A stretch of 64,000 nt of DNA from Candidatus Kaiserbacteria bacterium (GTDB lineage: Bacteria; Patescibacteriota; Minisyncoccia; Phycocordibacterales; UBA2100), in the NCBI GenBank assembly GCA_016214605.1, contig JACROD010000017.1:1183-65182 (forward strand), read 5' to 3'. The notes beneath the pieces were generated by a model that ran no database searches, had not been told where the DNA came from, and saw nothing but the letters and a program-made list of their open reading frames with translations. The translations under genes were made by a program, and so were the position numbers. The stretch's first letter is position 1. The number at the start of each line of letters is the position of its first letter. Shown piece after piece: positions 4,046 to 52,158 of this stretch.

Positions 4046-4348
4046 ATGAGTGACGAAAAGCCCATTATCAATATCCGCGCGCTTGCGGAACTTTCGCGTT
4101 TGGCGGTGTCCGATGAAGAGATCGCCAAGCTCGAGAAAGAGATGCCGAGCATTCTCACTTTTGTCGAGACAATCCAAAAAGCCGACATCTCGTCGGCAGT
4201 CGCCGATACTTCGCTCCGTAATGTCATGCGCGCGGATGAGAATCCTCACGAGACCGGCAAGTACACGGAGGTGCTTTTGAGCGCCGCTCCCGCTCGAGAG
4301 GGAGATCGCATTGCAGTTAAACAAGTCATAACCAGGAAGAACAACTAA
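4046..4348 (+). CDS. gatC: Asp-tRNA(Asn)/Glu-tRNA(Gln) amidotransferase subunit C
   Basis: 100 aa. The N-terminal INIRALAELSRLAVSDEEIAKLEKEM is typical of GatC. It lies immediately upstream of gatA, and its stop is 1 nt before the gatA ATG. Confidence 0.8.
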   Translation: MSDEKPIINIRALAELSRLAVSDEEIAKLEKEMPSILTFVETIQKADISSAVADTSLRNVMRADENPHETGKYTEVLLSAAPAREGDRIAVKQVITRKNN

Positions 4349-4349
4349 T

Positions 4350-5786
4350 ATGGATTTGACGAAACTCACCATCGCAGAAGCTCGCCGCGCACTCGATGCC
4401 AAGGAGTATTCCGCCCTTGACCTCACCAATGCGTACCTCGATGTCATTCGCGTCAAGAATCCCGAGATCCATGCGTATCTCGAGGTGTGGGAAGAATCGG
4501 CGCGTGCAGAGGCAAAGCGTGCCGACGAAATGATCGCTCAAGGTAAGCAGATGCCGCTCACCGGTATTCCTATTGCGATGAAAGACAATATTCTCATCGA
4601 AGGCCGCATTGCGAGCGCAGCATCGAAGATCCTCGAAAACTACCACGCGTCTTACGATGCGACCGTGACCAAAAAGCTGAAAGTGCAGGGTGCAGTATTT
4701 CTCGGACGCGCCAACATGGACGAATTCGCCATGGGCAGCTCCACCGAAAATTCCGCCTTCGGCCCGAGCAAAAATCCTATCGATCTCTCGCGTGTACCGG
4801 GCGGATCATCCGGCGGCTCTTCGGCGGCGGTCGCGGCTTCCATGGCGCTCGCAGCACTCGGCTCCGACACGGGTGGCTCGATCCGCCAGCCGGCTTCGTT
4901 TACCGGGCTCGTCGGCCTCAAGCCGACCTATGGCGCGGTATCGCGATTCGGCCTCATGGCGATGGGTAGCAGTCTCGATCAGATAGGGCCGCTTACGCGC
5001 ACGACAGAAGATGCGAAGATACTTTTTGATGCGATCAAGGGCAATGATCCGCAGGACAGTACCTCACTGCCAGAAACTGGAAGGTCTGACCTTCCAAGCT
5101 TGGAAGGTCAGACCTTCCAGCGACCGAAGCGCATCGGCGTGCCGCGCTCATTCCTCGCCGAGGGTACCGATCCCGATATCCTCAAGCGTTTCGAAGGGCA
5201 GATACAGAAACTTGCCAAACAAGGATATGAGATCGTTGATATTGAAATGTCTCATGTCCCGTATTCGCTCGCGGTATATTACATCGTCATGCCGGCCGAG
5301 GTCTCGACCAATCTCGAGCGTTTCGACGGCATCCGCTACGGACTCTCCGTGCCTGCGGAAGGGATCAAAGAAGTGTACTCGAAGACGCGTGGCGCGGGTT
5401 TTGGCGCTGAGGCGCGGCGCCGCATTCTTCTGGGAACGTTCGTGCTCTCGTCCGGTTATGCCGATGCGTATTATCGCAAGGCGCGCGCCGTGCGCAGCCT
5501 TATCCGCGACGATTTTATGAAGGCTTTCGAGATCGTCGATGCGGTCGCGACCCCGACGTGTCCGGCGCCCGCGTTCAAATTCGGTTCAAAATCAGATCCG
5601 CTTGCCATGTATATCGAGGACATCTTCAGTACCCCCGCCAATCTCGCGGGTGTACCGGCAATATCCGTTCCGATGGGCGCGGTCAATCGCGACGGCGTTG
5701 ATCTGCCGGTAGGGATTCAGATAATCGCACCTCATCGCCGCGAGGACGTACTCTTTGCGATCGGGACAGATATTGAGCGTGCATAG
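4350..5786 (+). CDS. gatA: Asp-tRNA(Asn)/Glu-tRNA(Gln) amidotransferase subunit A (amidase family)
   Basis: 478 aa. Amidase signature GGSSGGSSAAVAA, GIPIAMKDNI, and overall GatA architecture. It contains an internal 42-bp perfect palindrome (see findings). Confidence 0.9.
   Translation: MDLTKLTIAEARRALDAKEYSALDLTNAYLDVIRVKNPEIHAYLEVWEESARAEAKRADEMIAQGKQMPLTGIPIAMKDNILIEGRIASAASKILENYHASYDATVTKKLKVQGAVFLGRANMDEFAMGSSTENSAFGPSKNPIDLSRVPGGSSGGSSAAVAASMALAALGSDTGGSIRQPASFTGLVGLKPTYGAVSRFGLMAMGSSLDQIGPLTRTTEDAKILFDAIKGNDPQDSTSLPETGRSDLPSLEGQTFQRPKRIGVPRSFLAEGTDPDILKRFEGQIQKLAKQGYEIVDIEMSHVPYSLAVYYIVMPAEVSTNLERFDGIRYGLSVPAEGIKEVYSKTRGAGFGAEARRRILLGTFVLSSGYADAYYRKARAVRSLIRDDFMKAFEIVDAVATPTCPAPAFKFGSKSDPLAMYIEDIFSTPANLAGVPAISVPMGAVNRDGVDLPVGIQIIAPHRREDVLFAIGTDIERA
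5078..5119. repeat. Perfect 42-bp palindrome (19-bp arm, AGCT spacer, 19-bp inverted arm) inside the gatA coding sequence
   Basis: tggaaggtctgaccttcca-agct-tggaaggtcagaccttcca. The second arm is the exact reverse complement of the first. Each arm is itself nearly palindromic about its centre. Confidence 0.9.
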
Positions 5787-6595: not shown

Positions 6596-7927
6596 TTGAG
6601 CGGCGCTATGGACAACCTTCATGATGATGGATCGCAGGTCATACCTCAGGGAGACCTTAGGCCCCGTCCACAAATAAATTCTACAGTTGTGGACGGTGCA
6701 CAAAGGGCTCTAACCACAAATAACGAGTACGTTATTTGTGGAAGACCCCTTAGGTGGGTCGGGACCGCCTTGATACTCGTGTCGATCATTATGCGTGCGT
6801 TCTCGTATCCGGTCACGACATCCGACTATACGGGTTTTTTGAGCAACTGGTTCGCTGTGCTCGCGATGCATCCCGGCCTCACCGCATTTCAAACCGTCTT
6901 TTCGGACTACACTCCGCTGTATCTCTATTTCTTGAAGGCGCTCACTTTTATTCCCGTATCGAGTCTCTATAGTATCAAGACGCTCACGCTGTGTTTCGAC
7001 ATTGTGATCACGGTCTTCGCCGTCTTGATCGTGCGCGCCGCTCAGAAAGGAGCGAGCATAGGTCAGCTGTATCTCTCCGGAGCGATCATGTTCGCTATCC
7101 CGACGCTTTTGATCAATAGTTCGCTGTGGGGGCAATCTGATGCGGTGTACGCGACAGGATGTATTGTGAGCCTGTACTACATACTCAAAGATCGCCCACT
7201 GCTTGCCGTACTCGCATTTGGATTTGCCGTCAGCGTCAAACTTCAGGCGATATTCTTTCTCCCGGTCCTGATAGGATACTTTATGCGCGCGAACGAAAAG
7301 TCGGAATGGTCGATCGTGCGGCTTGGGTATCTGCTTGTCGTCCCGGCGTTCTTCGTACTCACACTCGTGCCGGCGTGGCTCTCGGGGGGATCATTGTCGG
7401 CGCTCGCATTGACCTATGTGCGCCAGTCGGGGGAATATACTGATCTCAACATGTCTTCGCCGAGCGCGTTTGCGTTTGTACAACAGCATCTGCTCTCCAT
7501 ATCGGCACAAAACATACTCCTCTTCGTCGGGATCGGTGCGGCCGCTTTGTGCGCGCTCGGCATCGTCGCGGTAATGTCTTGGACGTCCGCTTCGACATCC
7601 CGTCGGATGATCATCATGCTCGCGTGCCTGTCCGCGCTCGCCGTGCCTTTTTTCTTGCCGCGAATGCATGAGCGGTACTTCTACCTTGCCGACATGTTCA
7701 GCGTACTCTATGCACTTTCGTATCCGCGCATGTGGTATGTACCCGCATTGATCGTATCGGCGTCACTTCTTTCATATGTGCCGTATTTGTCGGGGCAGGT
7801 CGCGCTGTTCTCAAGTCTACAGATCGATCTGAGAATCCCGGCGACGGTATTAGGATTGACGCTCGCGACCCTTTTCTATCAGCTCTTCGCATCGCAGCGA
7901 AGACAAGCAAAATTGTCGAGTGTATGA
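6596..7927 (+). CDS. GT-C fold integral membrane glycosyltransferase (DUF2029/GT87-like mannosyltransferase family)
   Basis: 443 aa with about 11 predicted TM helices. It has an acidic/aromatic first-loop motif (TSDYTGFLSNWF) typical of polyprenyl-phosphate-sugar dependent GT-C enzymes, and lies next to gtrA. Confidence 0.5.
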   Translation: MSGAMDNLHDDGSQVIPQGDLRPRPQINSTVVDGAQRALTTNNEYVICGRPLRWVGTALILVSIIMRAFSYPVTTSDYTGFLSNWFAVLAMHPGLTAFQTVFSDYTPLYLYFLKALTFIPVSSLYSIKTLTLCFDIVITVFAVLIVRAAQKGASIGQLYLSGAIMFAIPTLLINSSLWGQSDAVYATGCIVSLYYILKDRPLLAVLAFGFAVSVKLQAIFFLPVLIGYFMRANEKSEWSIVRLGYLLVVPAFFVLTLVPAWLSGGSLSALALTYVRQSGEYTDLNMSSPSAFAFVQQHLLSISAQNILLFVGIGAAALCALGIVAVMSWTSASTSRRMIIMLACLSALAVPFFLPRMHERYFYLADMFSVLYALSYPRMWYVPALIVSASLLSYVPYLSGQVALFSSLQIDLRIPATVLGLTLATLFYQLFASQRRQAKLSSV

Positions 7928-9681: not shown

Positions 9682-11445
9682 ATGTATTCAAAAGCAAAAA
9701 TTATCGACCTACAGAATGTGTCTCGCGTCTTCATCGTGTGTCTCACGGCAATCGTACTGTCGTTCGTGCACCCCGGCATCGCGAGCGCGGCTTCGGTCAA
9801 TCCTTGGTGGCCGGTAGACGGCGCGCACATGACGGGCGTTCAGCCGTTCAAGGCCGAGCTCTCGGGCGTCTCGGTCGATCAATACCAAATGTACTGGCAA
9901 GTCGACGGCGGCGGGCAGGTCGCGATGGACTCCAACTACACCGGCTATCCGCACAAAGAAGCATCGGTCAACGTCACGCTGTGGACATGGCGCGGGGCGG
10001 GGCCGTACACGGTGACCTTCGTCGCCAAGCAAAACGGCGCGATAGTCGCACAGCAATCGGTCTCGATATACAACGACGCATACACGCCGACTGTGACGAC
10101 ACCCATTGCGCCGACCCCGGCGCCTGCACCCGCTTCATCTGCACCGGTAGTATCGATCACGCAACCGGCGCCTGTACCGGCTCCCACTCCAGCCCCGACG
10201 CAAGTACAGATCAATGTCTGGTGGCCGACTGCAAACGCGACCGTGAGCGGCGTGCAACCCTTCAAGGCGATGATCGCCGGTATGGATACTTCGACGTATA
10301 GCATGTACTGGCAAGTCGACGGCGGTACCTTGAGCGTCATGAGCAACGACAACACCGGGTATCCCCACAAGGAAGCTTCGGTCAATGTCGGCGCGTGGAA
10401 TTGGAATGCGAGCGGGAACTACATGGTCACCTTCACCGCGAAAAACGCAAGCGGAAGCGTGATCGGACAGGTGAGTATTCCGGTACACATTCCCGTCACG
10501 ACGATCACCCAGTCTCCGCAAAATGCTACGGCGGGCACGGTCTCGCAACCAGCGACGACCTATAGCGGCAATCCGCTTGCAGGCATGACATTCTGGGTCA
10601 ATCCCCATTCGTCTGCCGCCTCACAAGCAGCCGCATGGAGCTCAAGCGACCCGACCGATGCGGCGCTCATGCGGATGCTCGCGGCACAGCCGACTGCGCA
10701 ATGGTTCGGCGGTTGGAATAGCAACATCCAAAACGACGTGCACGCCACGGTCGCGAGCGCACAAAGCGCCGGTGCTGTGCCTGTGCTTGTTGCGTACAAC
10801 ATCCCGTTTCGTGATTGCGGCGGATATTCTGCCGGAGGAGCCACAAGCTACGCAGCGTATACGAGCTGGATACAATCCTTCGCGGCAGGTATCGGCAGTG
10901 CCAAAGCCGTCGTGATCCTCGAGCCCGATGCGCTCGCGACGATCTCGTGTCTCTCGTCGAGCGATGCACAGACGCGGCTCACACTCCTCACCAATGCGGT
11001 AACGACGCTCAAGACAAACAGCAACACCAAAGTGTACATCGATGCCGGACACACGGGCTGGATCGATCATGCGCAGATGGCCAATGAACTGCGATCAGCA
11101 AATGTCGCTCACGCAGACGGATTCGCGCTCAACGTCTCCAACTTCGGTTGGACGAGCGACAACACCGCCTATGGCACTCAGATCTCCAATGACCTCGGCG
11201 GCGCGCACTTCGTGATCGACACCTCGCGCAACGGCCTCGGATCCACGCCCGATAATCAATGGTGCAATCCGGCGGGTCGCGGTATAGGTACGCATCCGAC
11301 CACGGCGACCGGCAATTCGCTGATCGATGCGCTCCTCTGGCTCAAAGTTCCCGGCGAATCCGACGGCAATTGCAACGGCGGTCCAAATGCCGGCACTTGG
11401 TGGTCCTCCTATGCCGTCGGTCTAGCCCAGCGAGGCGTGCAGTAA
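9682..11445 (+). CDS. Secreted glycoside hydrolase family 6 (endoglucanase/cellobiohydrolase-type) with two N-terminal tandem beta-sandwich-like domains
   Basis: Signal peptide. Two roughly 100-aa repeats (WWP...GVQPFKA...MYWQVDGG...GYPHKEASVNV...) are separated by a Pro/Thr/Ala linker. The catalytic domain carries GH6 signatures YNIPFRDCGG and VVILEPDALA, plus WLKVPGESDG. Confidence 0.8.
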   Translation: MYSKAKIIDLQNVSRVFIVCLTAIVLSFVHPGIASAASVNPWWPVDGAHMTGVQPFKAELSGVSVDQYQMYWQVDGGGQVAMDSNYTGYPHKEASVNVTLWTWRGAGPYTVTFVAKQNGAIVAQQSVSIYNDAYTPTVTTPIAPTPAPAPASSAPVVSITQPAPVPAPTPAPTQVQINVWWPTANATVSGVQPFKAMIAGMDTSTYSMYWQVDGGTLSVMSNDNTGYPHKEASVNVGAWNWNASGNYMVTFTAKNASGSVIGQVSIPVHIPVTTITQSPQNATAGTVSQPATTYSGNPLAGMTFWVNPHSSAASQAAAWSSSDPTDAALMRMLAAQPTAQWFGGWNSNIQNDVHATVASAQSAGAVPVLVAYNIPFRDCGGYSAGGATSYAAYTSWIQSFAAGIGSAKAVVILEPDALATISCLSSSDAQTRLTLLTNAVTTLKTNSNTKVYIDAGHTGWIDHAQMANELRSANVAHADGFALNVSNFGWTSDNTAYGTQISNDLGGAHFVIDTSRNGLGSTPDNQWCNPAGRGIGTHPTTATGNSLIDALLWLKVPGESDGNCNGGPNAGTWWSSYAVGLAQRGVQ

Positions 11446-11447
11446 GA

Positions 11448-12946
11448 TCACTGACGCGCGAGCGGCGTGTCGTATCGCAACTGATACACGTACAGATCAA
11501 GGTCGCGGGAGAAATGCTCAGTGCCGATCCGGCGATAATGCTGATCGAAGTATGATTTAATCGTCTGTTCGTATCCTTGATCGTAGCTCAAGACGAGCCA
11601 TGCTTTCTGATAGCCGTCCGTGAGCGTAGCGACTTGTGCGGGGAGCTGTGCAGGAGAGAATGCGGGTATCGGACCGGTATCGTAGCGGTTCCATATCGGC
11701 AGTGTCGCGAGTGTCGCGGGAGAATGATAGTAGTATTCTATCGGATAGATCGTAAACGGCGTGGAGAGTATGATCGTATCTTGCGGTCCGGCATGTTCGT
11801 TGATGTATGTCACTACCTGCCGATAATTCTCTTTGACCGGTGTCGCGGGGCTCTGGATCTGTATCACGAGCCCCGCGACCATGACGATCGCGACGCTCCA
11901 CCGCGCCGCTTGCGCCAATCGCGGCGGATATGCATCGAAAAAGTGCGCCAACACCAGATACAATGACGGAACGGTAAAGATGAGGTAGCGGCTGACGAAT
12001 ACGGGCGTTAAGACGAAACTTCCGATAAAGAGGGCGGCGAACGAGCATATGATAGTGTACAAGAAATACTCGGTCTCGAAACGGAATCTTGCGCCGCGTC
12101 GCAGCGCGAGAAATACCAAGATCACGGTGATCGGCCAGAGCGATACGAAGATCGTGTTGAGTGTATCGTCTTGAAATCCGAACACGAACTGGGAGAATGT
12201 ATTGAAGAGATCGACGGTCGTTGGAGGCATCAAGAGGGGAAGTTGCATCCCAGCTTCTTTCAGTGCGTACACATACCACACCCATGGCGCGAATGAAAAG
12301 ACGAGTACGGCCGCGACGATGCTGAATCGCGCCAACGACCGCGGAGGAAACAACGAGCGGTGCAGGAAATAAAATACGGCTTGCGCCGCCAAGCTCAAAA
12401 AGAACAGATAGTGCGTATAGATGCCGAGCATCGCGGTCGTCCCGTAGCCGATCCATATGCGAGCGCTGCCTTGCTTGATGATCCGCAGGAAGAAGAATTG
12501 ATTGAGTATGATGAGCAGAGTGAAGAGCGCATACATGCGTATCTCATTGCCGTACCAATTCATGAATGGAGAGAGGCCGAAGAGGACCGACGCATACAGT
12601 CCCGTCGAACGGGAATACGCAAGGCGTCCCAGTATATAGATTGCGGGGATCGACAGGATATAGAACACGAGCGAGAGCGAGCGTGCGGCGGCGACAGAGC
12701 TGCCGAACGCGACGCGCCACATATGCAGCAGTATGTGGAAGAGCGGCACATGCACATCCTTGGCGACGATCATCAGTAGCGCGGACGGACTCCGGCCCGA
12801 TTCCCAGAGGCTCTGTGCTTCATCGAGTCGCAAGCTCTGCGGCAAGAGAAAGAAGACCGAGACGGCGGCGCAAAAGATCATGGTCGACATGAGTATGATG
12901 ACTGTGCTCCAAAAATGCCGTCTTTCTCGCGGCGGATTAATCTGCA
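11448..12946 (-). CDS. GT-C membrane glycosyltransferase of the ArnT/PMT (GT39/GT83-like) family
   Basis: Multi-TM protein. The first periplasmic loop has LRLDEAQSLWESG (DE motif), and the C-terminal soluble domain is present. The ORF-track start (13064) overlaps the upstream gene, so the start is probably the ATG at 12946. Confidence 0.6.
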
Positions 12947-14532
12947 TATGAACTTTGCGTTTGCATAAGCTGTCCCGGGCTGAGGATATCTTCTCTCCGC
13001 AAGGCTTCCTCGGCGGATCTTTGTACGGCGACGGCGGCGTTTGCTTTCTCCGGCCATGACGCATAGATAAAGGGTATAAAGATCGTCACGTTGAAGAGGG
13101 CCCACATGCTGTTGTTGAGGAGCGATGCAGTCACTCCTTCTCGGTCGTATGCGACCACTATCCCGACCAATGCGAGCGCGCAGTAGAACAAGTGCCATTT
13201 GACGATCGGAAGGAAGTTTCCTTCGAGCGCTCGTTTCGACGTGACAAGAAAATCATTTTTCCTCCCGGTGAGTGCCGCGAAAAACGCCGCCGTGTGAATG
13301 CTGAACGATCCCATGGAAAAACCGAGCGACCGGAAGGTGAAGTGTGCGTTCGATACGCGCTGAATGACATAGAATGTCAGGAAGATATAGGGAAGAAAGA
13401 TGGCGGCGAGAAGCATGCTATTCATCTGTACCGCGACCGCTCCCGTATAAAAGAATGCGATCGGCAAGAGCGCATCGATCATAACGACGATGCCGGAAAG
13501 GTAGAAACTTGCCGAAGAGAGATATTGTATGCGCTGCGCTCCGGTGAGGCCGCGCATAAAGAGCGGATTGTAGCGGAAAATGACGTCGAATGCGCCGCGC
13601 GCCCAGCGGAACTGCTGTGTCGAATATGAGCGCAGATCTTCCGTCGCGAGACCCTCTGCCAGTACTTCGGGCACGTATACCGATCGATACCCTCGCGCAT
13701 GCATAAGCAGGCCGGTGACGAAGTCTTCGGCGATACTGTCGGTCTTCATGCCGCCGACCGTCGCGAGCGCCGCACGTGAGATGACCATGTTGGTGCCGCA
13801 GAGGGTCGCGCTATTGAGGCGATTCTTGCCCTTGCAAATGGGCCCGAAGAAAAGCTCCTGCTGTTCCCATGAGCCGTTGGTGAGGTGACTCTTTTCGAGA
13901 TTCTTGTAGAACTGCGGCGTCTGCACGAACGCGACCTTATCATCGACGAAATACGGCACGGTCTTTGCGAGGAAGTCGGCATGCGGCACATGATCCGCGT
14001 CGAAGATGGCGATGAGCGGGCTTCGCGTGAGCGACAGCGCGTGATTGATGTTGCCGGCCTTCGCGCCTCCGGGTATCTGTCGCGTGATGCACGAGACACC
14101 GAGACGCGCGGCCAATGTCTCCATGTCGCGCCAATTCTTTTTGCCGGCGACGTACCCATCATTCAAGATATATACCTTGAACGATGGGTACGTCATCTGC
14201 TTGGCGGCGCGCACCGTTGCTTCCATGATCTCGATGGATTCGCCCGCAGCGGTGATATATACGTCGACCGAAGGACGCAGCAGCGTATTGCGCGGTGCGA
14301 TGTGGCGGGTGTCCCATACCGTGTAGAGGAACGTGAGCACTTGCCACAAGTGAAACGCCTCACCCGCGATGAGAAAACCGAACAGTATGCGATTTCCCGG
14401 CATGAAGAAAAAGGTGATCGCTATAAAATAAGTGATCGCCATGATCGCGTTGAAGGCAAGAAGCACGCGGGGCGATTCCGTCCTGAGAAAAGAATGTTTC
14501 CGGTCGCTCATGTCGTAAACATATTTCATAGG
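12937..14532 (-). CDS. Processive family-2 beta-glycosyltransferase, cellulose synthase (BcsA/CesA)-like, no PilZ domain
   Basis: Motifs DGY, FDADHVP (DxD), ATEDL (TED) and QQFRWARG (QxxRW), with TM helices on both sides. The likely start is MKYVYDMSDRK at 14532. The longer ORF-track start overlaps the GH8 gene. Confidence 0.75.
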   Translation of the reverse strand, partial: PMKYVYDMSDRKHSFLRTESPRVLLAFNAIMAITYFIAITFFFMPGNRILFGFLIAGEAFHLWQVLTFLYTVWDTRHIAPRNTLLRPSVDVYITAAGESIEIMEATVRAAKQMTYPSFKVYILNDGYVAGKKNWRDMETLAARLGVSCITRQIPGGAKAGNINHALSLTRSPLIAIFDADHVPHADFLAKTVPYFVDDKVAFVQTPQFYKNLEKSHLTNGSWEQQELFFGPICKGKNRLNSATLCGTNMVISRAALATVGGMKTDSIAEDFVTGLLMHARGYRSVYVPEVLAEGLATEDLRSYSTQQFRWARGAFDVIFRYNPLFMRGLTGAQRIQYLSSASFYLSGIVVMIDALLPIAFFYTGAVAVQMNSMLLAAIFLPYIFLTFYVIQRVSNAHFTFRSLGFSMGSFSIHTAAFFAALTGRKNDFLVTSKRALEGNFLPIVKWHLFYCALALVGIVVAYDREGVTASLLNNSMWALFNVTIFIPFIYASWPEKANAAVAVQRSAEEALRREDILSPGQLMQTQSSYAD

Positions 14533-15785
14533 CTTGCTTGATCTAGTGATAATCGGGGAAGGGATGCGGCGATGTTTGGGAGGAGGTCGTTGTACAATGC
14601 GATGCCGAACCATGCCCAGTTGTCGCCGTAGTACGACATGTCGGTATTCCACGTATTGTTATCGGGGCTGAACAAGCTTTCCAGCTTCGTCGTGTACACG
14701 ACGGGCGCGAGTGAGGGATCGACCGTCATGAAATATCCGATCGTGCCGCCGTACATGGCCGGCGATTCATGCGCTGTGCCGGTCGCCGTCGATCCGTCGT
14801 GCGCGTATGTCGCGTACAGAAAGCTGTTTTTGTTCCATTCTTCCGAAAGGAACGAGAATCTCTTGAGTATGGCTTGGTCGTGCGAGTCGTGGAACCATTG
14901 CCAGTCGAGCGTAAGCCGCCACGGCAGCCGCAAGGCGTTGTATCCGAAATCGGTCGTGGTCTCGGGAGTGTCATGCAAAGGTTCGATCGCGCCGGTCTGC
15001 TTGTGGATGCGTATCCAGTCGGGTGGCAGATCGGCGCTCTTTTTCTTGTCGAGGGTGCTATCCGATGCGCGCGCGATCAGATCATATGAACTATCGACAA
15101 GCTCCAGCCATGGGTGTGCGGTGTCGATCCGGGCGAAAATGCGAAAAGCAGCCGGATTCAAATAGGACGGATTGACCGCCGCCCATGGAGACGTCGAAGT
15201 CTTCTCAAGGCTGTCGGCTGTGAGATATGGTGTCCCTTGTATGGTGATGACCTCGGCATTCCAGATAGCCGCGATGGTCGTGCTCGCACTCTCGAGGTAC
15301 GCGGGATCTTGCCAGCGTGCATATGCGAACACAAGCGACAACGCGATATCCACGTCTGCATCAGATGCGCTCGTCATTCCGCCTTGGTCGGCGAGTATTC
15401 CGTAGGTGCCGTCGCCCTGCTTTCCGTAGAGCCATGCAAACACATGATCGGGGCGTTCGAGCGCGCGGTGCGTCCAACCCCACGAAGTGTCGAATGTCTC
15501 CTTGTCTCCCATCCAGACGGCGCGCATCATCGTATAGCTTTGTCCTTCGGACGTTGTTGTATTGTTGTGGCCTGGATCGATCGTGCGTCCGTCGCTCGCA
15601 ACATACACTTTTTTGTAACTGTTCCACAATGCGGACAACATCTGTGGAGGCGAAAAGACGAGCGCTTTACTCCCTTGATGAACGCTAAAATAGCCGCCTC
15701 CGGCCACGCCAGCGATCATCACGGCGCCCAAAAGACAGTTCGCGACTCGGGATCTTTTCATGTTATATGCGGGCCTGTTCATCAT
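14526..15785 (-). CDS. Glycoside hydrolase family 8 endoglucanase (BcsZ-like)
   Basis: N-terminal TM/signal. Has TSEGQSY and the GH8 signature ASDADVDIALSLVFAYARW. Confidence 0.8.
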   Translation of the reverse strand: MMNRPAYNMKRSRVANCLLGAVMIAGVAGGGYFSVHQGSKALVFSPPQMLSALWNSYKKVYVASDGRTIDPGHNNTTTSEGQSYTMMRAVWMGDKETFDTSWGWTHRALERPDHVFAWLYGKQGDGTYGILADQGGMTSASDADVDIALSLVFAYARWQDPAYLESASTTIAAIWNAEVITIQGTPYLTADSLEKTSTSPWAAVNPSYLNPAAFRIFARIDTAHPWLELVDSSYDLIARASDSTLDKKKSADLPPDWIRIHKQTGAIEPLHDTPETTTDFGYNALRLPWRLTLDWQWFHDSHDQAILKRFSFLSEEWNKNSFLYATYAHDGSTATGTAHESPAMYGGTIGYFMTVDPSLAPVVYTTKLESLFSPDNNTWNTDMSYYGDNWAWFGIALYNDLLPNIAASLPRLSLDQASL

Positions 15786-28867: not shown

Positions 28868-28939
28868 TTGCGGGGGCGGGAATTGCACCCGCGACCTCAA
28901 GGTTATGAGCCTTGCGAGCTACTACTGCTCCACCCCGCG
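28868..28939 (-). tRNA. tRNA-Met (CAT), probable initiator tRNA-fMet
   Basis: CGCGGGGTGGAGCAGTAGTAGCTCGCAAGGCTCATAACCTTGAGGTCGCGGGTGCAATTCCCGCCCCCGCA(A). Cloverleaf with a C1xA72 mismatch typical of bacterial initiator tRNA and anticodon loop CTCATAA. CCA is not encoded. The D-loop lacks the usual GG and the T-loop is TGCAATT. Confidence 0.65.
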
Positions 28940-34497: not shown

Positions 34498-34570
34498 GCC
34501 GGCGTAGCTCAGTGGTAGTAGCATCGCACTCATAAAGCGAAGGTCACAGGTTCGATCCCTGTCGCCGGCA
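34498..34570 (+). tRNA. tRNA-Met (CAT), elongator type, or tRNA-Ile2 if lysidinylated
   Basis: GCCGGCGTAGCTCAGTGGTAGTAGCATCGCACTCATAAAGCGAAGGTCACAGGTTCGATCCCTGTCGCCGGCA. A 7-bp acceptor stem, T-arm GGTTCGATCC and anticodon loop CTCATAA. No CCA. Confidence 0.75.
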
Positions 34571-34657: not shown

Positions 34658-35344
34658 ATGCGCATGACAAAGAAGACCCTCGACCAAGACTTCTTCAAGA
34701 ATTGGGCCCCGACCATGGCCTATGTGCTTGGATTTTTTGCCGCCGACGGCACGATGATCAAAAATAAGCGAGAGGGACATTTCATAGAGTTTCACATTAC
34801 TGATCGTAAGCTACTCTTTGATATACGACGCGCCGTAAGTTCTAATCACAAGATTGCCATACGTGTACGAAATCCAAAATGGAAACTAGGATATCGGTTG
34901 CAGATAGGATCCAAGAGATGGTTTTCCGACCTCCAGAGATTGGGTTTTTCTTCTCGTAAGAGTAATGTAATGCTCTTCCCAAATGTGCCGGATGAATTTC
35001 TCGGTTCGTTTATACGGGGTTATTTTGACGGAGATGGATGCGTATATTTCAAAAATCTGAAGTTTGCCGACCGTAAGAAGGCTCGATGGATATTAATGTC
35101 TGTTTTTACGTCAGGCAGTCGACAATTTCTCATGCAACTTCACACTGCACTGAAAAGACATGGTGTGCAGGGAGGGTCTATTCGAAATAAAAAGAGCGGG
35201 TATGACCTCTCCCTGAGCCACAAAGATAGCCTTGCATTATATCGTCTTATGTATGATACTGTGTCCGATACAAGCATTATGTTGCCCAGGAAATATCGTT
35301 TATTTACTAAGGCGATTAATACATTGTATCCTTTGCGGCCGTAG
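34658..35344 (+). mobile_element. Free-standing LAGLIDADG homing endonuclease (double-motif)
   Basis: 228 aa with two LAGLIDADG motifs (LGFFAADGT and IRGYFDGDGCV). Local GC is lower than in the flanks. The stop codon TAG lies inside the acceptor stem of the downstream tRNA-Asp. Confidence 0.8.
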
Positions 35345-35409
35345 CTCAACTGGTTAGTAGCACCCGCCTGTCACGCGGGAGGTTGCCGGTTCAAGTCCGG
35401 TCGGCCGCG
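35335..35409 (+). tRNA. tRNA-Asp (GTC)
   Basis: GCGGCCGTAGCTCAACTGGTTAGTAGCACCCGCCTGTCACGCGGGAGGTTGCCGGTTCAAGTCCGGTCGGCCGCG. Anticodon loop CTGTCAC, discriminator G. Confidence 0.8.
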
Positions 35410-47486: not shown

Positions 47487-48308
47487 ATGAAAGAAAACAC
47501 ATTCGAGTCGATAAAAAGAATTGATGAAAACGGCAGGGAATATTGGTCTTCACGGGAGCTTGCCAAAGTACTGGAGTATGCAGACTACCGTAAATTCCTC
47601 AATGTTACAGACAAAGCAAAGGTGGCGTGTGAAAATAGTGGAGAAGTTATCCACAACCATTTTGTCCATACGGACGAAATGGTTCCGATTGGTTCAGGGG
47701 CCGAAAGGCCTGTAGACACGATCTTTCTTTCTCGGTATGCTTGCTATCTGATCGTCCAAAACTCCGATCCGACTAAAGTCGTCGTGGCAAAAGGTCAGAC
47801 GTACTTTGCGATCCAGACTCATCGACAGGAGAAGGCAGATAACTTGATCGAAGACCACAACCGCGTCTTCCTCCGTGAGGAGATGAAGAAGCACAACACG
47901 AGCCTGATCCAGACGGCGTCTCAGGCAGGTGTAGAAAGCTTCGCCATCTTTCAAAACGCTGGATATAAGGGCTTGTACGGGGGACGTACGATGCAAGATA
48001 TACACACAAAAAAGAAACTGAAGAAGTCACAGAAGATTCTTGATCACATGAACAGTGAAGAACTTGCCGCCAACCTCTTCCGAGCTACCCAAACAGACGC
48101 AAAGATCAAGCGTGAAAATATCAGAGGCCAAGGGAGTGCAAACCTAGCACACTACGAGGTCGGTCAGAAGGTTCGTGCCACGATTGCCAATCTGGGCGGA
48201 ACAATGCCGGAAGAACTCCCGACCCCTGATGCTATCGGTAAAGCACAAACGCGAATAAAGAAGGCGCAGGGAGTAAAGAAACTTGGAAAAGGGAAAGGTA
48301 CTCTGTAA
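47487..48308 (+). CDS. DinD-like (DNA-damage-inducible protein D / Bro-N-like) protein
   Basis: FESIKRIDENGREYWSSRELAKVLEY ... TRYACYLIVQNSDP ... AKGQTYFAIQT resembles E. coli DinD (... GQEFWSARELAPLLGY ... TRYACYLVVQNGDP ... AQTYFA). Confidence 0.55.
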   Translation: MKENTFESIKRIDENGREYWSSRELAKVLEYADYRKFLNVTDKAKVACENSGEVIHNHFVHTDEMVPIGSGAERPVDTIFLSRYACYLIVQNSDPTKVVVAKGQTYFAIQTHRQEKADNLIEDHNRVFLREEMKKHNTSLIQTASQAGVESFAIFQNAGYKGLYGGRTMQDIHTKKKLKKSQKILDHMNSEELAANLFRATQTDAKIKRENIRGQGSANLAHYEVGQKVRATIANLGGTMPEELPTPDAIGKAQTRIKKAQGVKKLGKGKGTL

Positions 48309-48534: not shown

Positions 48535-49155
48535 ATGACATTTTACGACAGAAGCGAAGCGGGCAGACTCCTTGCAAAAAAACTTGGCGCTTACCGCCGC
48601 GCGGATGCGGTCGTCCTCGCGCTTCCGCGCGGCGGCGTGGTGCTCGGATATGAGGTCGCGCAAGACCTGGATCTGCCGCTCGACATCATCGCGGTGCGAA
48701 AAATAGGGCATCCGAACAATCCCGAATTTGCCGTATGCGCTGTCGATGAGCATGGAACGTTATTGTGCGATGAAGCCGGTCGTGCGTCGCTCGATCCCGA
48801 CTGGCTACGGCAAGAAGTGATGCGCGAGCAAAAAGAATCGCAACGCCGCAACAAGGTCTATCGGCAAGGCAAGAAGCCTCTATCGATCACCGGCAAGACG
48901 GCGATCATCGTCGATGACGGGGTCGCGACGGGCCTTACCATGCGGCTCGCGATCATGGCGGTGCGATCGCAGAAACCGAAGCGTATTGTAGTAGCGGTGC
49001 CGGTCGCACCGTTTGAACCGGTCGAACAGATCAGCGAGCAAGCGGACGAGTCTGTAGTGCTCACCCCGCCCGAAGATTTCCTCGGAGCCGTCGGTACCCA
49101 CTACGAGCGGTTTGCGCAAGTGAGCGACGATGAGGTCATCCGGTTGCTGAGTTGA
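48535..49155 (+). CDS. Predicted phosphoribosyltransferase (PRTase fold)
   Basis: PRTase PRPP-binding loop TAIIVDDGVATGLT. Overall layout similar to YhgH/ComF-less stand-alone PRTases. Confidence 0.7.
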   Translation: MTFYDRSEAGRLLAKKLGAYRRADAVVLALPRGGVVLGYEVAQDLDLPLDIIAVRKIGHPNNPEFAVCAVDEHGTLLCDEAGRASLDPDWLRQEVMREQKESQRRNKVYRQGKKPLSITGKTAIIVDDGVATGLTMRLAIMAVRSQKPKRIVVAVPVAPFEPVEQISEQADESVVLTPPEDFLGAVGTHYERFAQVSDDEVIRLLS

Positions 49156-49204
49156 CGTGATATTCAACAAAGGTTATTTGGGATACATTGAGTCAATGCT
49201 AAAA

Positions 49205-49430
49205 TAGTCGCGGGATAGCGAGAGTTGGTATTTTTCGGCTTTTGCCGGAAACGGGAGTCGTGCGATAAGTCCGTCATCCGCCTTGTGCGGTGGATCGTCT
49301 GAAAGGATGAAGGTGCGGTAAAAAGCGACAACCGGCTCACGGGTGTACCAAGAGCCCATTCGGGGAGGTGAACGAAAGGCGAAGCGGGCGACGAAATCCC
49401 GCCTATCTTCAAGTAACCGGTTATCCCGAC
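49205..49430 (+). ncRNA. rnpB: Candidate strongly reduced RNase P RNA (rnpB-like) or other structured ncRNA
   Basis: Order-preserving matches to bacterial RNase P conserved regions. CR-I-like GATAAGTCCGTCATCC (cf. GGAAAGUCCGGGCUCC). P11/12-like GGATGAAGGTGCGGTAAAAAGCGACAACC (cf. GGGUGAAANGGUGCGGUAAGAGCGCACC). CAAGAGCCCATTCGGGG (cf. CAAGGCCAAAUAGGGG). AGGTGAACGAAAGGC (cf. AGAUGAAUGACUGUC). CR-V-like AACCGGTTATC (cf. AACCCGGCUUAUC). The P1 ends pair (GTCGCGGGATA / TATCCCGAC). The region is about 225 nt, far shorter than the usual 330-400 nt, and the P5-P9 region is nearly absent. Confidence 0.45.
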
Positions 49431-49458
49431 AAAAAACTCCCCGCTCGGGGAGTTTTTT
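49431..49458. terminator. Rho-independent terminator (bidirectional A-run/hairpin/T-run)
   Basis: aaaaaactcccc-gctc-ggggagtttttt, immediately after the candidate ncRNA. Confidence 0.7.
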
Positions 49459-49611
49459 GTCGTTGGACCACCAACCTAGGATTGCACCTGCTTCATATGG
49501 TCGTCTATTGACACCGATATAATGTGTATGGTATACTGAAACCAGCTGATGGATCAAGGGATTCCCTCGCGATTCCAGGACAGCTCATTTACAAACTACA
49601 GGAGACTGACC

Positions 49612-50319
49612 ATGCCGAAAGGTATGCTCGGGAATAGCGAAGTGCTCCGCCGCATCATGAGCGGACCGTTCGCCGACCTCGCCGTTAAACTCAATAGCGA
49701 AGACTCGGATGAGTGGGAGGCAGCCCTCGGAACTTTCTTGCGCAAGGAGCCCACGTGGGTGGGCGGCGCAGTTGCCAATGTCGAAAAGGTGAAACCCCCG
49801 ACCCTCGTCCTCATCCAGACGGCGACTCTCGGCAAGATCGAGGGCAAGGAGACCCGCAGTTGCTTCGCCGGCGCCATCTGGGGCTATCGGGACAGTGACA
49901 TAGACCGCTGGTTTCCCGCGCGACAGATCGCGCAAACGGCCGGTTCGGTCGGAGTCTATCAGCTTCAGAATCCGAAAGGCACCGCCTTCCGGGAAATGGC
50001 GCTGGCGGCTCTGAAAGCCTCACCCGATACCTCCAACGACCAACTCGCCAAGATGCTGAAGGAGCGCGGACTCACGTTCACGATCCAAGCCATCGAACGA
50101 CTGGTCGAAAGGCAGGAAAGCGGCGAGGACGTCGGTTTGCGTACCGATGGTTACGCGAACCTTGCGTTCGCTGAAGACGCGAACGGGAGCGTCTCGGTTC
50201 TCCGTGTCGGCCGCAGCGTCGACGGGTGGGGCGCCTACGTCTACCGGTTCGGCGACGGCGGCAGGTGGCGTGCCGAGTACCGTCTGCTTCTCCGCAACTC
50301 GGTCACTGCGACGCTCTGA
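49612..50319 (+). CDS. DGR target protein (variable protein) with the C-terminal variable repeat
   Basis: 235 aa. RBS AGGAG before the ATG at 49612. The last roughly 36 codons coincide with the VR, and the TR-encoded version is rich in AAC codons. There is no signal peptide. The N-terminal domain has unknown fold. Confidence 0.7.
   Translation: MPKGMLGNSEVLRRIMSGPFADLAVKLNSEDSDEWEAALGTFLRKEPTWVGGAVANVEKVKPPTLVLIQTATLGKIEGKETRSCFAGAIWGYRDSDIDRWFPARQIAQTAGSVGVYQLQNPKGTAFREMALAALKASPDTSNDQLAKMLKERGLTFTIQAIERLVERQESGEDVGLRTDGYANLAFAEDANGSVSVLRVGRSVDGWGAYVYRFGDGGRWRAEYRLLLRNSVTATL
50189..50295 (+). repeat. DGR variable repeat (VR), at the 3' end of the target gene
   Basis: 107 bp aligned without gaps to the TR at 50578-50684. 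All 17 mismatches fall at positions that are A in the TR (AAT->CGT, AAC->GGC, ACG->GCG, A->T and so on). The 3' 24 bp gccgagtaccgtctgcttctccgc is identical (IMH-like). Confidence 0.85.
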
Positions 50320-50577
50320 CACTTGGACCCTTGCATTGGTCCCGTACCCCGCACTTCTGGAAACGGAAGTCGCGGGGTATATTTATGCATGAACACGCTG
50401 GCATCTCCGGTCTGGCTTTTGTTTTGGACTTGAGGTGGCGAGGTTCGCACTTCTTCAAAAAAAGAAGAGAGTTGGTGCGCTGTGCTCGCGGGCTTGCGGC
50501 CCCACATCAGATACAGCCCGGAGAGTATTCTATGGGCAGTGGCCTTCGCGGGCGTCATGGATGGCACGGCGCACGAA

Positions 50578-50684
50578 GCGTCTCGGTTCTCAATGTCAAC
50601 CGCAACGACGACAGGTGGAACGCCAACGTCAACCGGTTCGACGACGGCAACAGGTGGAATGCCGAGTACCGTCTGCTTCTCCGC
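50578..50684 (+). repeat. DGR template repeat (TR), non-coding, between the target gene and avd/RT
   Basis: A-rich template with five AAC and one AAT codon-equivalents that are substituted in the VR. No ORF covers it in frame with a plausible start. Confidence 0.85.
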
Positions 50685-50708
50685 CACTCACTCCTTTCTC
50701 CCCTAGCC

Positions 50709-51050
50709 CTATGCTCGGGGAGTTTTCGTTTCCAAATACTCCTTCCAACCGACGAGCATTTTGCTCGCCTCTACGAGCGGAGCCGAGAGATGTGCATATT
50801 GTTTGTCTGTGACCATGTCGATTTCCCAGCCGACAAGCAAAAAGAACTTTACCAAATCAAGGCGAACCACGGCGGCTTCAATTGCCGTTACTTTTTGTTG
50901 CCCCGATAGATAGCTGGCGCGGAAGGCCCATTCGAGCGTGGCAAGAAACAACTCATCTATCTTCTCGCCGAGCGTGCGTCGTTGTGTTTTAGCGATGTGC
51001 GGCAGGAGCCCTTGCCAGAGGCCGTAGGAATCTTTCAATACCAACACCAC
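50709..51050 (-). CDS. avd: Avd-like accessory variability determinant (four-helix-bundle protein / 23S rRNA IVS protein family)
   Basis: 113 aa. LKDSYGLWQG (cf. FKDLxVWQKA), then helical segments ending ... ASKMLVGWKEYLE (cf. KMLNGLIKSL) typical of the bAvd family. It is divergent from the RT. Confidence 0.6.
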   Translation of the reverse strand: MVLVLKDSYGLWQGLLPHIAKTQRRTLGEKIDELFLATLEWAFRASYLSGQQKVTAIEAAVVRLDLVKFFLLVGWEIDMVTDKQYAHLSAPLVEASKMLVGWKEYLETKTPRA

Positions 51051-51102: not shown

Positions 51103-52158
51103 ATGAGCGGAATCCGGTTTATCCATACCTATGAGGATATCATTTCTGTAGAAAATTTGCTCGCGGCATGGCGGGAATTTTTGAGAGGCAAACGCAAGAA
51201 GGATGACGTGCGCAAGTTTCAATACCATCTCTCCGACAACATCCTCGCGCTCCATCGCGACCTTAAGGACAAAACATACCGCCATGGCGCATACGAAGCC
51301 TTCAAGATCAATGACCCCAAGCCGCGCGATATCCACAAGGCGACGGTGCGCGACCGCCTGCTCCATCACGCGATCTACCGACACCTCTATCCATTTTTCG
51401 ACCACACCTTCATCGCGGATTCGTATTCATGCAGAAGAGGGAAGGGTACACACAAGGCGATGGATCGTTTCAGGTCATTCGCATACCAAGTATCCAAGAA
51501 TCACACGCGCACGGTATGGGTCTTGAAATGCGATATCAAGAAGTTTTTCGCATCCATCGACCAAGCCACACTGTTTGCTATCGTCGCGCGATACATCCCC
51601 GACAAGGACATCAGCCGACTCATTGGCGAGATCATCGGGAGTTTCCAGACCCACACAACTATGCCTATAGGACGATCTGTGTGTATGGAAAAGAGAAAAG
51701 GATTACCGCTCGGTAATCTCACTTCGCAACTGCTCGTGAACATCTATATGAATGAGTTCGACCAGTTCGTGAAGCACAAACTCAAAGCAAGACACTATGT
51801 GCGTTATGCCGACGATTTCGTGGTCATGAGTACGGATCGAGTATGGCTTGAAGGACTGATCCCGCTTATCGCGCGATTCCTCGACGAGCGCCTTGCGCTT
51901 TCGCTCCATCCAAACAAGGTCTCAATCGCAACACTTGCATCCGGTGTCGATTTCTTGGGATGGGTGCATTTCTCCGATCATCGGGTACTACGAACGACGA
52001 CAAAGCGTCGAATGTTGCGGCGCACCGCAGACCTTGAAAAAGACGACCCCACCGTACGGTCTTATCTTGGGATGCTGAGCCATGGTAATGGGGAGAAATT
52101 ACGGGACATGGTAACGAAAACAGTTTTTGCTTTACGCGAACCGAGCAAGCTAAAGTGA
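51103..52158 (+). CDS. Diversity-generating retroelement reverse transcriptase
   Basis: 351 aa. RT motifs 1-7 with YADD (RYADDFVVM). DGR hallmark motif 4 GLPLGNLTSQLLVNIYMNEFD (I/LGxxxSQ in place of the QGxxxSP of other RTs). N-terminal ENLLAAWREFLRGKRKK. No maturase/X or endonuclease domain. Confidence 0.85.
   Translation: MSGIRFIHTYEDIISVENLLAAWREFLRGKRKKDDVRKFQYHLSDNILALHRDLKDKTYRHGAYEAFKINDPKPRDIHKATVRDRLLHHAIYRHLYPFFDHTFIADSYSCRRGKGTHKAMDRFRSFAYQVSKNHTRTVWVLKCDIKKFFASIDQATLFAIVARYIPDKDISRLIGEIIGSFQTHTTMPIGRSVCMEKRKGLPLGNLTSQLLVNIYMNEFDQFVKHKLKARHYVRYADDFVVMSTDRVWLEGLIPLIARFLDERLALSLHPNKVSIATLASGVDFLGWVHFSDHRVLRTTTKRRMLRRTADLEKDDPTVRSYLGMLSHGNGEKLRDMVTKTVFALREPSKLK

Follow-up and report, generated by a model that had tools for sequence, protein, structure and literature searches.

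In the type A form of bacterial RNase P RNA (RF00010), the elements on the 3' side follow one another in the order P2-3', J2/4, P4-3' and P1-3', an arrangement that makes a pseudoknot. Other bacterial non-coding RNAs, large or of complex fold, such as the raiA motif RNA, OLE, ROOL and GOLLD, are orphans of no assigned function; orphan RNAs of such complexity are uncommon, and past ones proved to be ribozymes, ribonucleoprotein (RNP) scaffolds or global regulators. Among bacteria that belong to the candidate phyla radiation (CPR), RNase P RNAs can diverge greatly: the Rfam thresholds missed 10 of 35, which RF00010 recovered only when scores down to 5 bits were accepted (Lui et al. 2021, PMC8172020). 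Here we consider a 64-kb stretch of DNA from a Candidatus Kaiserbacteria bacterium (hereafter the window, by which we mean all of the 64,000 nucleotides analysed) and in particular an intergenic element at 49178-49461 on its plus strand, which lies directly upstream of the target gene of a diversity-generating retroelement (DGR) and which an earlier note had proposed as a candidate minimal RNase P RNA. Our analysis suggests that the element probably specifies a stand-alone, strongly structured small RNA, rare or accessory, that belongs to a family absent from Rfam 15 and known so far from three CPR genomes.

Two true homologues of the element were found by DNA pattern scans. One of these (L020, positions 2305-2545) lies in a metagenome-assembled genome (MAG) of a Candidatus Jorgensenbacteria (nhmmer E = 2e-19), and the other (L075, positions 7152-7446) on a JGI metagenome contig (nhmmer E = 1.5e-13). 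The core of the window copy is 79% identical to that of each homologue, and the cores of L020 and L075 are 92% identical to each other; the 145-150 nt of flanking DNA on each side show background identity (50-57%), even when L020 is compared with L075. Moreover, in L020 and L075, which come from AT-rich genomes, the GC content of the RNA is 53-55% as against 40-43% in the flanks, that is, 11-13 points higher.

The element is a compact unit in which a sigma-70-like promoter is followed by a closing helix (P1), internal helices and a 14-bp intrinsic terminator. The candidate RNA measures ~216 nt from P1 to P1 and ~250 nt including the terminator (49212-49461, +). In L020 an equivalent promoter-like site, TTGTTA-16-TGgTATTAT, ends 7 nt before P1, and in both the window and L020 P1 begins 6-7 nt after the -10 element, which is the spacing expected of a transcription start. 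The earlier note had proposed that complementary ends could form a P1 and that a strong terminator follows, and both proposals were borne out: the 8 bp between 49212-49219 and 49420-49427 can form in all three copies, and the terminator (a 14-bp hairpin with a U-tract at 49428-49461) abuts the 3' strand of P1, and the three copies have similar versions of it in which 13 of 13 pairs are preserved. (Note that a simple terminator scan did not flag 49428-49461, since the U-run there takes part in the stem.) Transcription would start at the first base of P1 from the RNA's own extended -10 promoter and would stop at the intrinsic terminator; the element looks like a structured RNA gene that is independently transcribed, with P1 as its closing helix and a terminator of its own. 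The features of the unit in the window are these:

49178-49205 (+): promoter-like site, TTGGGA-16 nt-TGcTAAAAT (extended -10, TG-n-TAAAAT), recognized from the sequence
49212-49219 (+): 5' strand of P1, GGGAUAGC (that is, GGGATAGC), the predicted 5' end of the RNA; pairs with 49420-49427
49225-49231 (+): 5' strand of helix P2c, UUGGUAU; pairs with GUACCAA at 49345-49351
49232-49251 (+): hairpin Pc, UUUUCGGC / GCCGGAAA, loop UUUU; in the minimum free energy (MFE) fold of all three copies
49252-49261 (+): 5' strand of helix P-alpha, CGGGAGUCGU; pairs with GCGACAACCG at 49325-49334
49262-49274 (+): conserved internal-loop strand GCGAUAAGU, then 5' strand of helix P-beta, CCGU; contains AAGUCCG at 49267-49273
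49276-49295 (+): hairpin Pe, AUCCGCC-UUGUGC-GGUGGAU; stem sequence conserved in all three copies
49296-49309 (+): hairpin Pf, CGUCU-GAAA-GGAUG, with a GNRA-type loop; compensatory U-A to C-G
49310-49324 (+): junction AAGGU, 3' strand of P-beta GCGG, loop UAAAAA; the string that the earlier note called P11/P12-like
49325-49344 (+): 3' strand of P-alpha, GCGACAACCG, then conserved linker GCUCACGGGU; GGCUYACGGGU conserved in all three copies
49330-49340 (+): second look-alike of conserved region V (CR-V), AACCGGCUCAC; reads GGCUUAC in the homologues
49345-49351 (+): 3' strand of P2c, GUACCAA; pairs with 49225-49231
49355-49364 (+): hairpin Ph, CCC-AUUC-GGG; longer versions in the homologues, read by eye
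49370-49410 (+): variable hairpin Pj, GAAcGAaAGG ... CCUaUCUUC; poor alignment, read by eye
49415-49425 (+): string that the earlier note called CR-V-like, AACCGGUUAUC; linker plus most of the 3' strand of P1
49420-49427 (+): 3' strand of P1, GUUAUCCC (that is, GTTATCCC); pairs with 49212-49219
49428-49461 (+): intrinsic terminator, A-tract, CUCCCC-GCUC-GGGGAG, U-tract (bidirectional type); forms a hairpin of 14 bp in the MFE fold

The fold was derived with RNAalifold on the three sequences, with an exhaustive search for helices open to every one of them, and with constrained folding, and the three approaches converged on a fully nested model. When the model was counted on the alignment, 98.3% of 180 cells were paired and 7 pairs had changed on both sides, one or two per helix, over seven of the eight helices; slid partners (by 1-3 columns) gave 0-2, and the count of both-side changes was reached by 2 of 500 shuffles. 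Covariation is supportive of the fold, but with two effective lineages it is not conclusive. In the window copy the full unit has an MFE of -102.1 kcal/mol on the plus strand versus -86.1 kcal/mol on the minus strand, and none of 200 shuffles folded as well (z = -3.4); the z-scores of the three copies are -3.4, -2.7 and -4.6.

Helix by helix, the support is as follows. In P1 one pair has gone from G-C to A-U, a change of both sides, and three others have changed on one side. P2c, with consensus UYGGUAU/GUACCRA, shows a compensatory change of U-A to C-G in L020 and L075, and enforcing it costs 2.4-4.9 kcal/mol relative to the MFE. (Helix i, GAGUUGG/CCGGCUC, which occurs in the MFE fold of the window copy, was set aside: both homologues would have an A-C mismatch in it, and P2c accounts for the same variation by a compensatory change.) A U-A to A-U swap is seen in Pc, whose loop is GAAA in the homologues; two positions of P-alpha have changed on both sides (G-C/A-U and C-G/U-G/U-A); and Pf has a GAAA loop in L075 as it does in the window copy. 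In P-beta, CCGY pairs with GCGG (49315-49318) in the consensus fold, and these pairs are invariant, so that covariation is neutral here. AGUCCG and, within 49310-49324, GGUGCGGUAAAAAGC are likewise invariant in all three copies. Ph reads CUCAGCC/GGUCGAG in L020 and CUCGGCC/GGCCGAG in L075, its second pair being C-G in the window and U-A there, and at the position of Pj the homologues have hairpins of other length and sequence (GAGAU/AUCUU in L020; GAGAGA/UCUCUC, with a long tip, in L075). In L075 two segments of ~25-35 nt that pair with themselves are inserted precisely at hairpin tips, one in Pe (~35 nt) and one in Pj (7222-7262 and about 7362-7393). Insertions are confined to those two tips, and variation in length is located at the tips of hairpins. 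Expansion of variable length at hairpin tips is typical of real structured RNAs. In the model, a 5' domain closed by P2c would hold hairpin Pc and a long arm made up, in order, of P-alpha, a conserved asymmetric internal loop (GCGAUAAGU / UAAAAA; consensus GYRAURAGU / UAAAAA), P-beta, and a three-way junction with Pe and Pf; a variable 3' domain would hold Ph and Pj, and P1 would close the whole RNA.

Several points weigh against the reading of the element as a structured RNA of a rare family. The three sequences amount to effectively two lineages, given the 92% identity of L020 and L075, and the covariation is correspondingly too thin to decide between competing helices (helix i and P2c, P-alpha and a P4-like pairing described below, hairpin g and P2c); helix i, a GCUY...RAGC hairpin and the P4-like pairing would be alternatives to the model. 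Without the terminator, the core of the window copy gives z = -1.7, which is modest against shuffles; the case is therefore not based on thermodynamics alone, and its real support is comparative. No partner gene is conserved across the loci. Finally, the estimate of rarity rests on exact patterns, and L075 itself differs at 2 of the 18 positions of the first pattern; exact patterns miss divergent members, and the family may therefore be commoner than it looks.

The two minus-strand open reading frames (ORFs) that overlap the RNA, at 49164-49412 and 49174-49557, do exist, and the earlier note had called them probable artefacts, a judgement with which our results agree. Neither has a Pfam match, a search of 5.8 billion proteins turned up no relative of the 127-aa minus-strand ORF, and no homologue was obtained when the three copies were translated in six frames and the concatenated product was used as a protein query. 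Moreover, no reading frame is open in all three homologous copies. The overlapping ORFs look like artefacts.

The first pattern, an 18-mer common to the window copy and L020, was scanned for exact occurrences over the GTDB species genomes (185,579) and gave 21 matches, about the number expected by chance on our own estimate, of which only L020 is homologous. (The matches in Niastella and Aquimarina lie within coding sequence that reads NEGAVKS, the Niastella gene looking like a SusC-type receptor, and the match in L026 is also coding.) Two-anchor patterns, whose anchors are invariant in all three copies, were scanned over 241 million JGI metagenome records and gave 46 matches, of which only L075 is real. 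Four pattern scans of IMG/VR gave no real match, and blastn against phage and plasmid collections gave short chance matches only. A covariance model of the family (R1), searched over 741 kb of collected loci, recovered only the three known copies. Similarly, no copy was present at 13 loci, Kaiserbacteria-type, around relatives of the upstream phosphoribosyltransferase (PRTase) gene, though these loci cover a small part of the genomes concerned. The RNA occurs once in the 64-kb window and once in each locus, and a search of the window for attachment sites and duplications found only chance 11-mers and one common terminator motif, with no flanking repeats.

The copies sit in variable, partly defence-type neighbourhoods, and the neighbouring genes differ across all three loci. 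In the window the neighbours are a PDC-S13/Bro-N defence-candidate gene, the PRTase gene (48535-49155), whose product is 100% identical to an NCBI protein of a Candidatus Kaiserbacteria bacterium, and the DGR. In L020, a 2.8-kb contig, the sole large ORF (57-2222, +) lies directly upstream of the RNA and specifies a 721-aa primase-polymerase/helicase fusion of the TOTE type that matches Pfam AEP-TOTE and the PADLOC model of CRISPR-associated PrimPol (E = 4e-79); in the ~280 nt of this contig left 3' of the RNA there is no ORF of at least 60 aa on the RNA strand. In L075 (11.8 kb), AbiEii, a SocA/Panacea antitoxin, an M15 peptidase and a GIY-YIG gene lie upstream, and xseA lies ~240 nt downstream. 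Because the neighbourhoods are non-syntenic and variable and the RNA is rare in large collections, we infer that it is accessory and has probably been spread horizontally. Because no conserved partner gene was found, any function we assign to it is pure inference; our best guess would be an accessory RNA, either protein-binding or catalytic. The invariant sequences of its junctions and loops would most likely offer a surface to which a protein or a second RNA binds, whether within an RNP or in regulation.

Some observations concern these neighbours themselves. The product of the window gene at 47487-48308 (+), two genes upstream of the RNA, is a Bro-N protein that matches PADLOC PDC-S13 (E = 7e-110) and also a model of the Type I specificity subunit, and the RNA and the DGR thus adjoin a defence-type gene in the window. 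The TOTE conflict system (TPR, OB, TBP, Effector) next to L020 was considered as a lead and dropped; no RNA component was found described for TOTE. On an ENA groundwater contig (L155) that carries a PRTase relative (P0027), 1 kb of DNA downstream of that relative is free of genes; its minus strand holds, at 4213-4458, a sub-threshold match to the T-box leader (E = 5.6e-4, 27.9 bits), accompanied by a terminator. This match is unrelated to the RNA studied here. On a JGI contig (L002), a reverse transcriptase gene (60-1040, +) lies ~9 kb upstream of another PRTase relative (P0004); retroelements may be common near this PRTase gene in these genomes.

The DGR that adjoins the RNA in the window is real, as the earlier note had supposed, with its variable repeat (VR), template repeat (TR) and reverse transcriptase (RT) at the following positions:

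50188-50300: VR of the DGR, 85% identical to the TR
50577-50689: TR of the DGR, 85% identical to the VR
51103-52158: RT of the DGR

A link between the RNA and the DGR found no backing. None of 57 loci with related DGR reverse transcriptases carries a copy of the RNA (loci L097-L105 were also checked with the family covariance model), the RNA has no similarity to VR or TR, no RT occurs among the nine neighbouring ORFs scanned in L075, and the sole large ORF of L020 is the primase-helicase. Judged from these sequence comparisons, the RNA is not part of the neighbouring DGR. With respect to the DGR itself, the target ORF (49549-50319) has its own near-consensus promoter, TTGACA-18-TG-n-TATACT, at 49508-49537, 3' of the RNA terminator; this promoter ends 11 nt before the ATG (49508-49549, +), and the mRNA of the DGR target may be leaderless or nearly so. 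A terminator-like sequence, GCTCGGGGAGTTTT, at 50713-50730 (+), just 3' of the TR, is identical to the 3' half of the RNA terminator, and a similar motif, CAAAAAACTCC, recurs at 59796; this type of terminator looks common in the host genome.

With regard to RNase P, the strings quoted by the earlier note are all present: AAGTCCG (49267-49273), GGATGAAGGTGCGGTAAAAAGCG (49305-49327), CAAGAGCCCATTCGGGG (49350-49366), AGGTGAACGA (49367-49376) and AACCGGTTATC (49415-49425). Their resemblance to universally conserved regions of RNase P RNA, and with it the idea of a minimal RNase P RNA, did not stand. Rfam was searched with the whole 64-kb window at gathering score and, at E ≤ 10, with 521 nt and 233 nt of the window, L075 and L020. 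No RNase P RNA was detected in the window at gathering score; at E ≤ 10 no family of Rfam 15, RNase P included, credibly matched any of the three copies, though unrelated matches of ~12 bits were listed at that search size, and the RNase P, tmRNA, SRP and 6S models gave no relevant match to the region. (The positive control, E. coli rnpB, scored 318.6 bits.) Given the CPR RNase P RNAs that are found only at 5 bits (PMC8172020), this negative result is therefore strong, though not absolute.

Only one match to E. coli rnpB or to the RF00010 consensus rises above background. This match, AAAGGUGCGGUAA (13-21 nt), is reached by ~1% of shuffles and aligns to J12/13 and the 5' strand of P13, with 13-nt identity to RF00010. 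The string that had been called P11/P12-like, GGTGCGGTAA, corresponds to the P13 hairpin of type A, which is not universal: in the RF00010 alignment GGugcgGUAAGAGcgcaCC is this hairpin and is absent from many bacteria, and the complementary 3' strand of P13 (CGCACC) is absent in all three copies. For the specificity domain, P10-P12 with CR-II and CR-III, the only similar string is again AAAGGUGCGGUAA, and no P5/P7, P10-P12 or P15/L15 could be placed in the RNA. The string that had been called CR-V-like at 49415-49425 is replaced by an unrelated CCGCUCGCUG in both homologues (AACCGGUUAUC aligning with CCGCUCGCUGU in L020 and L075); no A-rich J2/4 is found there, and a CR-V/P4 3' strand (ACAGAA-CCCGGCUUA) directly 5' of the 3' strand of P1 is not conserved in the homologues. 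As for CR-I (GAGGAAAGUCCGG), RAGUCCG is conserved in all three copies; GUGYRAU, and not an A-rich J3/4, precedes it, and the best consensus fold pairs its CCG within P-beta.

What remains of the likeness is a pairing that resembles P4. AG(U)CCG (49268-49273) can pair with CGGCU (49333-49337), with a bulged U, in all three copies, and an extremely reduced or rewired RNase P RNA would have this pairing as its P4, GGCUYAC as CR-V, Pc as P3 and Pf as a counterpart of P9. In favour of such an RNA, AGUCCG and GGCUYAC are both invariant, the GGCUUAC of L020 and L075 is identical to the RF00010 consensus, the order of P1, a hairpin, AAGUCCG, two hairpins (one of them GNRA-capped), an A-rich joiner and GGCUYAC recalls the catalytic domain, and RNase P RNAs of CPR bacteria are known to diverge. 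However, the look-alike P4 has invariant pairs only, overlaps and competes with P-alpha (which has two compensatory positions) and with P-beta, and is nested within P2c; all helices that have support are nested, which leaves no P2/P4 pseudoknot, and ~90 nt, occupied by Ph and Pj, separate the look-alike from P1-3'. Nor does the distribution fit a universal RNA: there was one true match in the 185,579 species genomes and one in the JGI metagenomes (exact patterns, so suggestive only), and at 79% identity between Kaiserbacteria and Jorgensenbacteria an essential RNA should have given many pattern matches. We consider it quite improbable that the element is a reduced RNase P RNA, and the RNA is best read, on its sequence and predicted fold, as not being RNase P RNA. 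Because the invariant AG(U)CCG/GGCUYAC pairing with its bulged U lies beside A-rich joiners, one might envisage a new class of complex-folded CPR RNA descended from, or converged on, the catalytic core of RNase P, an idea to which we give similarly little credence; the same low standing applies to the proposals that it would be a rewired ~216-nt ribozyme that processes the 5' ends of tRNAs or other RNAs, and that it would serve a few Paceibacteria as an accessory enzyme or as a replacement of the canonical rnpB.

A housekeeping regulatory RNA, whether a 6S-like RNA that binds RNA polymerase or another global RNP RNA, might be widespread in Paceibacteria and have been missed by exact-pattern scans. 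The strong promoter, the terminator and the end-to-end closing helix are typical of 6S and of abundant stable RNAs, the pattern scans are insensitive to members with a single mismatch (the first pattern would miss L075), and a core 79% identical across genomes that differ by 11-12 GC points indicates strong purifying selection. Yet neither 6S nor any other Rfam model matches, the fold is one of multi-branched short hairpins and not a long rod with a central bubble, anchors invariant in the three copies gave one more copy in 241 million records, and the 13 Kaiserbacteria-type loci lack a copy (a weak point, given the small share of each genome that they cover); we regard this as unlikely. The same structured region with an intrinsic terminator upstream of a same-strand gene could also be a cis-acting leader (riboswitch or attenuator) whose terminator regulates the DGR target gene, but the downstream genes differ (the DGR target in the window, xseA in L075, no ORF of at least 60 aa in the remainder of L020), the DGR target has its own promoter, TTGACA-18-TATACT, after the terminator, no riboswitch model matches and no alternative antiterminator pairing is evident, all of which makes a leader exceedingly improbable. 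As for whether the element is an RNA gene at all, the terminal inverted repeats of P1, the sporadic distribution and the variable, defence-type neighbourhoods would suit a conserved DNA element (the end of a mobile element or a miniature inverted-repeat transposable element, an attachment site or a protein-binding region), and a small protein gene might also be considered. Against a DNA element, each locus has one copy only and the window shows no flanking repeat, the compensatory changes keep RNA pairing (including G-U pairs that are valid on one strand only), folding is better on the plus than on the minus strand, and promoter and terminator bracket the unit precisely; against a small protein, there is no conserved ORF. 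We consider either of these highly improbable. (ARAGORN detected neither a tRNA nor a tmRNA in the region concerned of the window, in L020 or in L075. Also discarded were resemblances to FMN, cobalamin and ykkC riboswitches, SRP helix 8, domain 5 of group II introns and the hammerhead, since no model matched and, judged by eye, the order of motifs did not fit.)

The rest of the window carries ordinary cellular genes, among them those for an NAD-dependent ligase, RNase J, GroEL and P-type ATPases, and tRNAs lie at 28868-28939, 34498-34570 and 35335-35409. A glycoside hydrolase of family 6 (GH6, cellulase-type) is specified at 9682-11445 (+), and a cellulose-synthase-like family 2 glycosyltransferase nearby at 12937-14652 (-); such a pair seems unusual for a small CPR genome.

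If the RNA is real, it would be a previously undescribed multi-helix RNA of ~216 nt in CPR bacteria, whose genomes are tiny and in which any conserved non-coding element is likely to matter. The motif-by-motif likeness to RNase P, plausible as it looks, does not survive a look at homologues and at the true assignment of the matched motifs to helices. This correction matters for annotation, since there are many CPR genomes whose RNase P RNA is not easily found. With three sequences behind it and a family that seems rare, the claim has its present value as a lead and not as a result.

Set beside the systems with which it might be compared, the structured RNA described here shares several features with type A RNase P RNA (RF00010): its own promoter and terminator, a P1 made from both ends, an early hairpin at the position of P3, a conserved AGUCCG able to pair with a conserved GGCUYA with a bulged U, a GNRA-capped hairpin and a 13-nt identity in J12/13-P13. 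Unlike type A RNase P RNA, it has no covariance-model match, its look-alike P4 is nested and lacks covariation, it has no P5/P7, P10-P12 or P15, its P13-like string lacks the 3' strand, and it has an extra 3' domain of 90 nt before P1-3'; moreover, RNase P RNA is universal whereas this RNA is rare and sporadic, and at ~216 nt it is to our knowledge shorter than any bacterial RNase P RNA. With 6S RNA (RF00013) it has in common an independent gene of ~200 nt, a closing stem at the ends, a strong promoter and terminator, and conservation within a narrow clade, but it lacks the long interrupted duplex with a central bubble, being multi-branched with at least 8 short helices, and it does not match the model. 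The RNA parts of DGRs (the TR transcript and the downstream spacer) are alike in that the RNA adjoins the DGR cassette on the same strand and has a terminator of the type found after the TR; however, the RNA is placed upstream of the target gene and not in the interval from TR to RT, has no VR/TR similarity and is absent from the 57 DGR loci. Like the raiA motif, OLE, ROOL and GOLLD RNAs, it combines a multi-helix fold, conserved junctions, stand-alone transcription and a patchy distribution, and it differs from them in having no match to any of them in Rfam 15 and in coming, so far, only from CPR bacteria (Paceibacteria-type), with three representatives.

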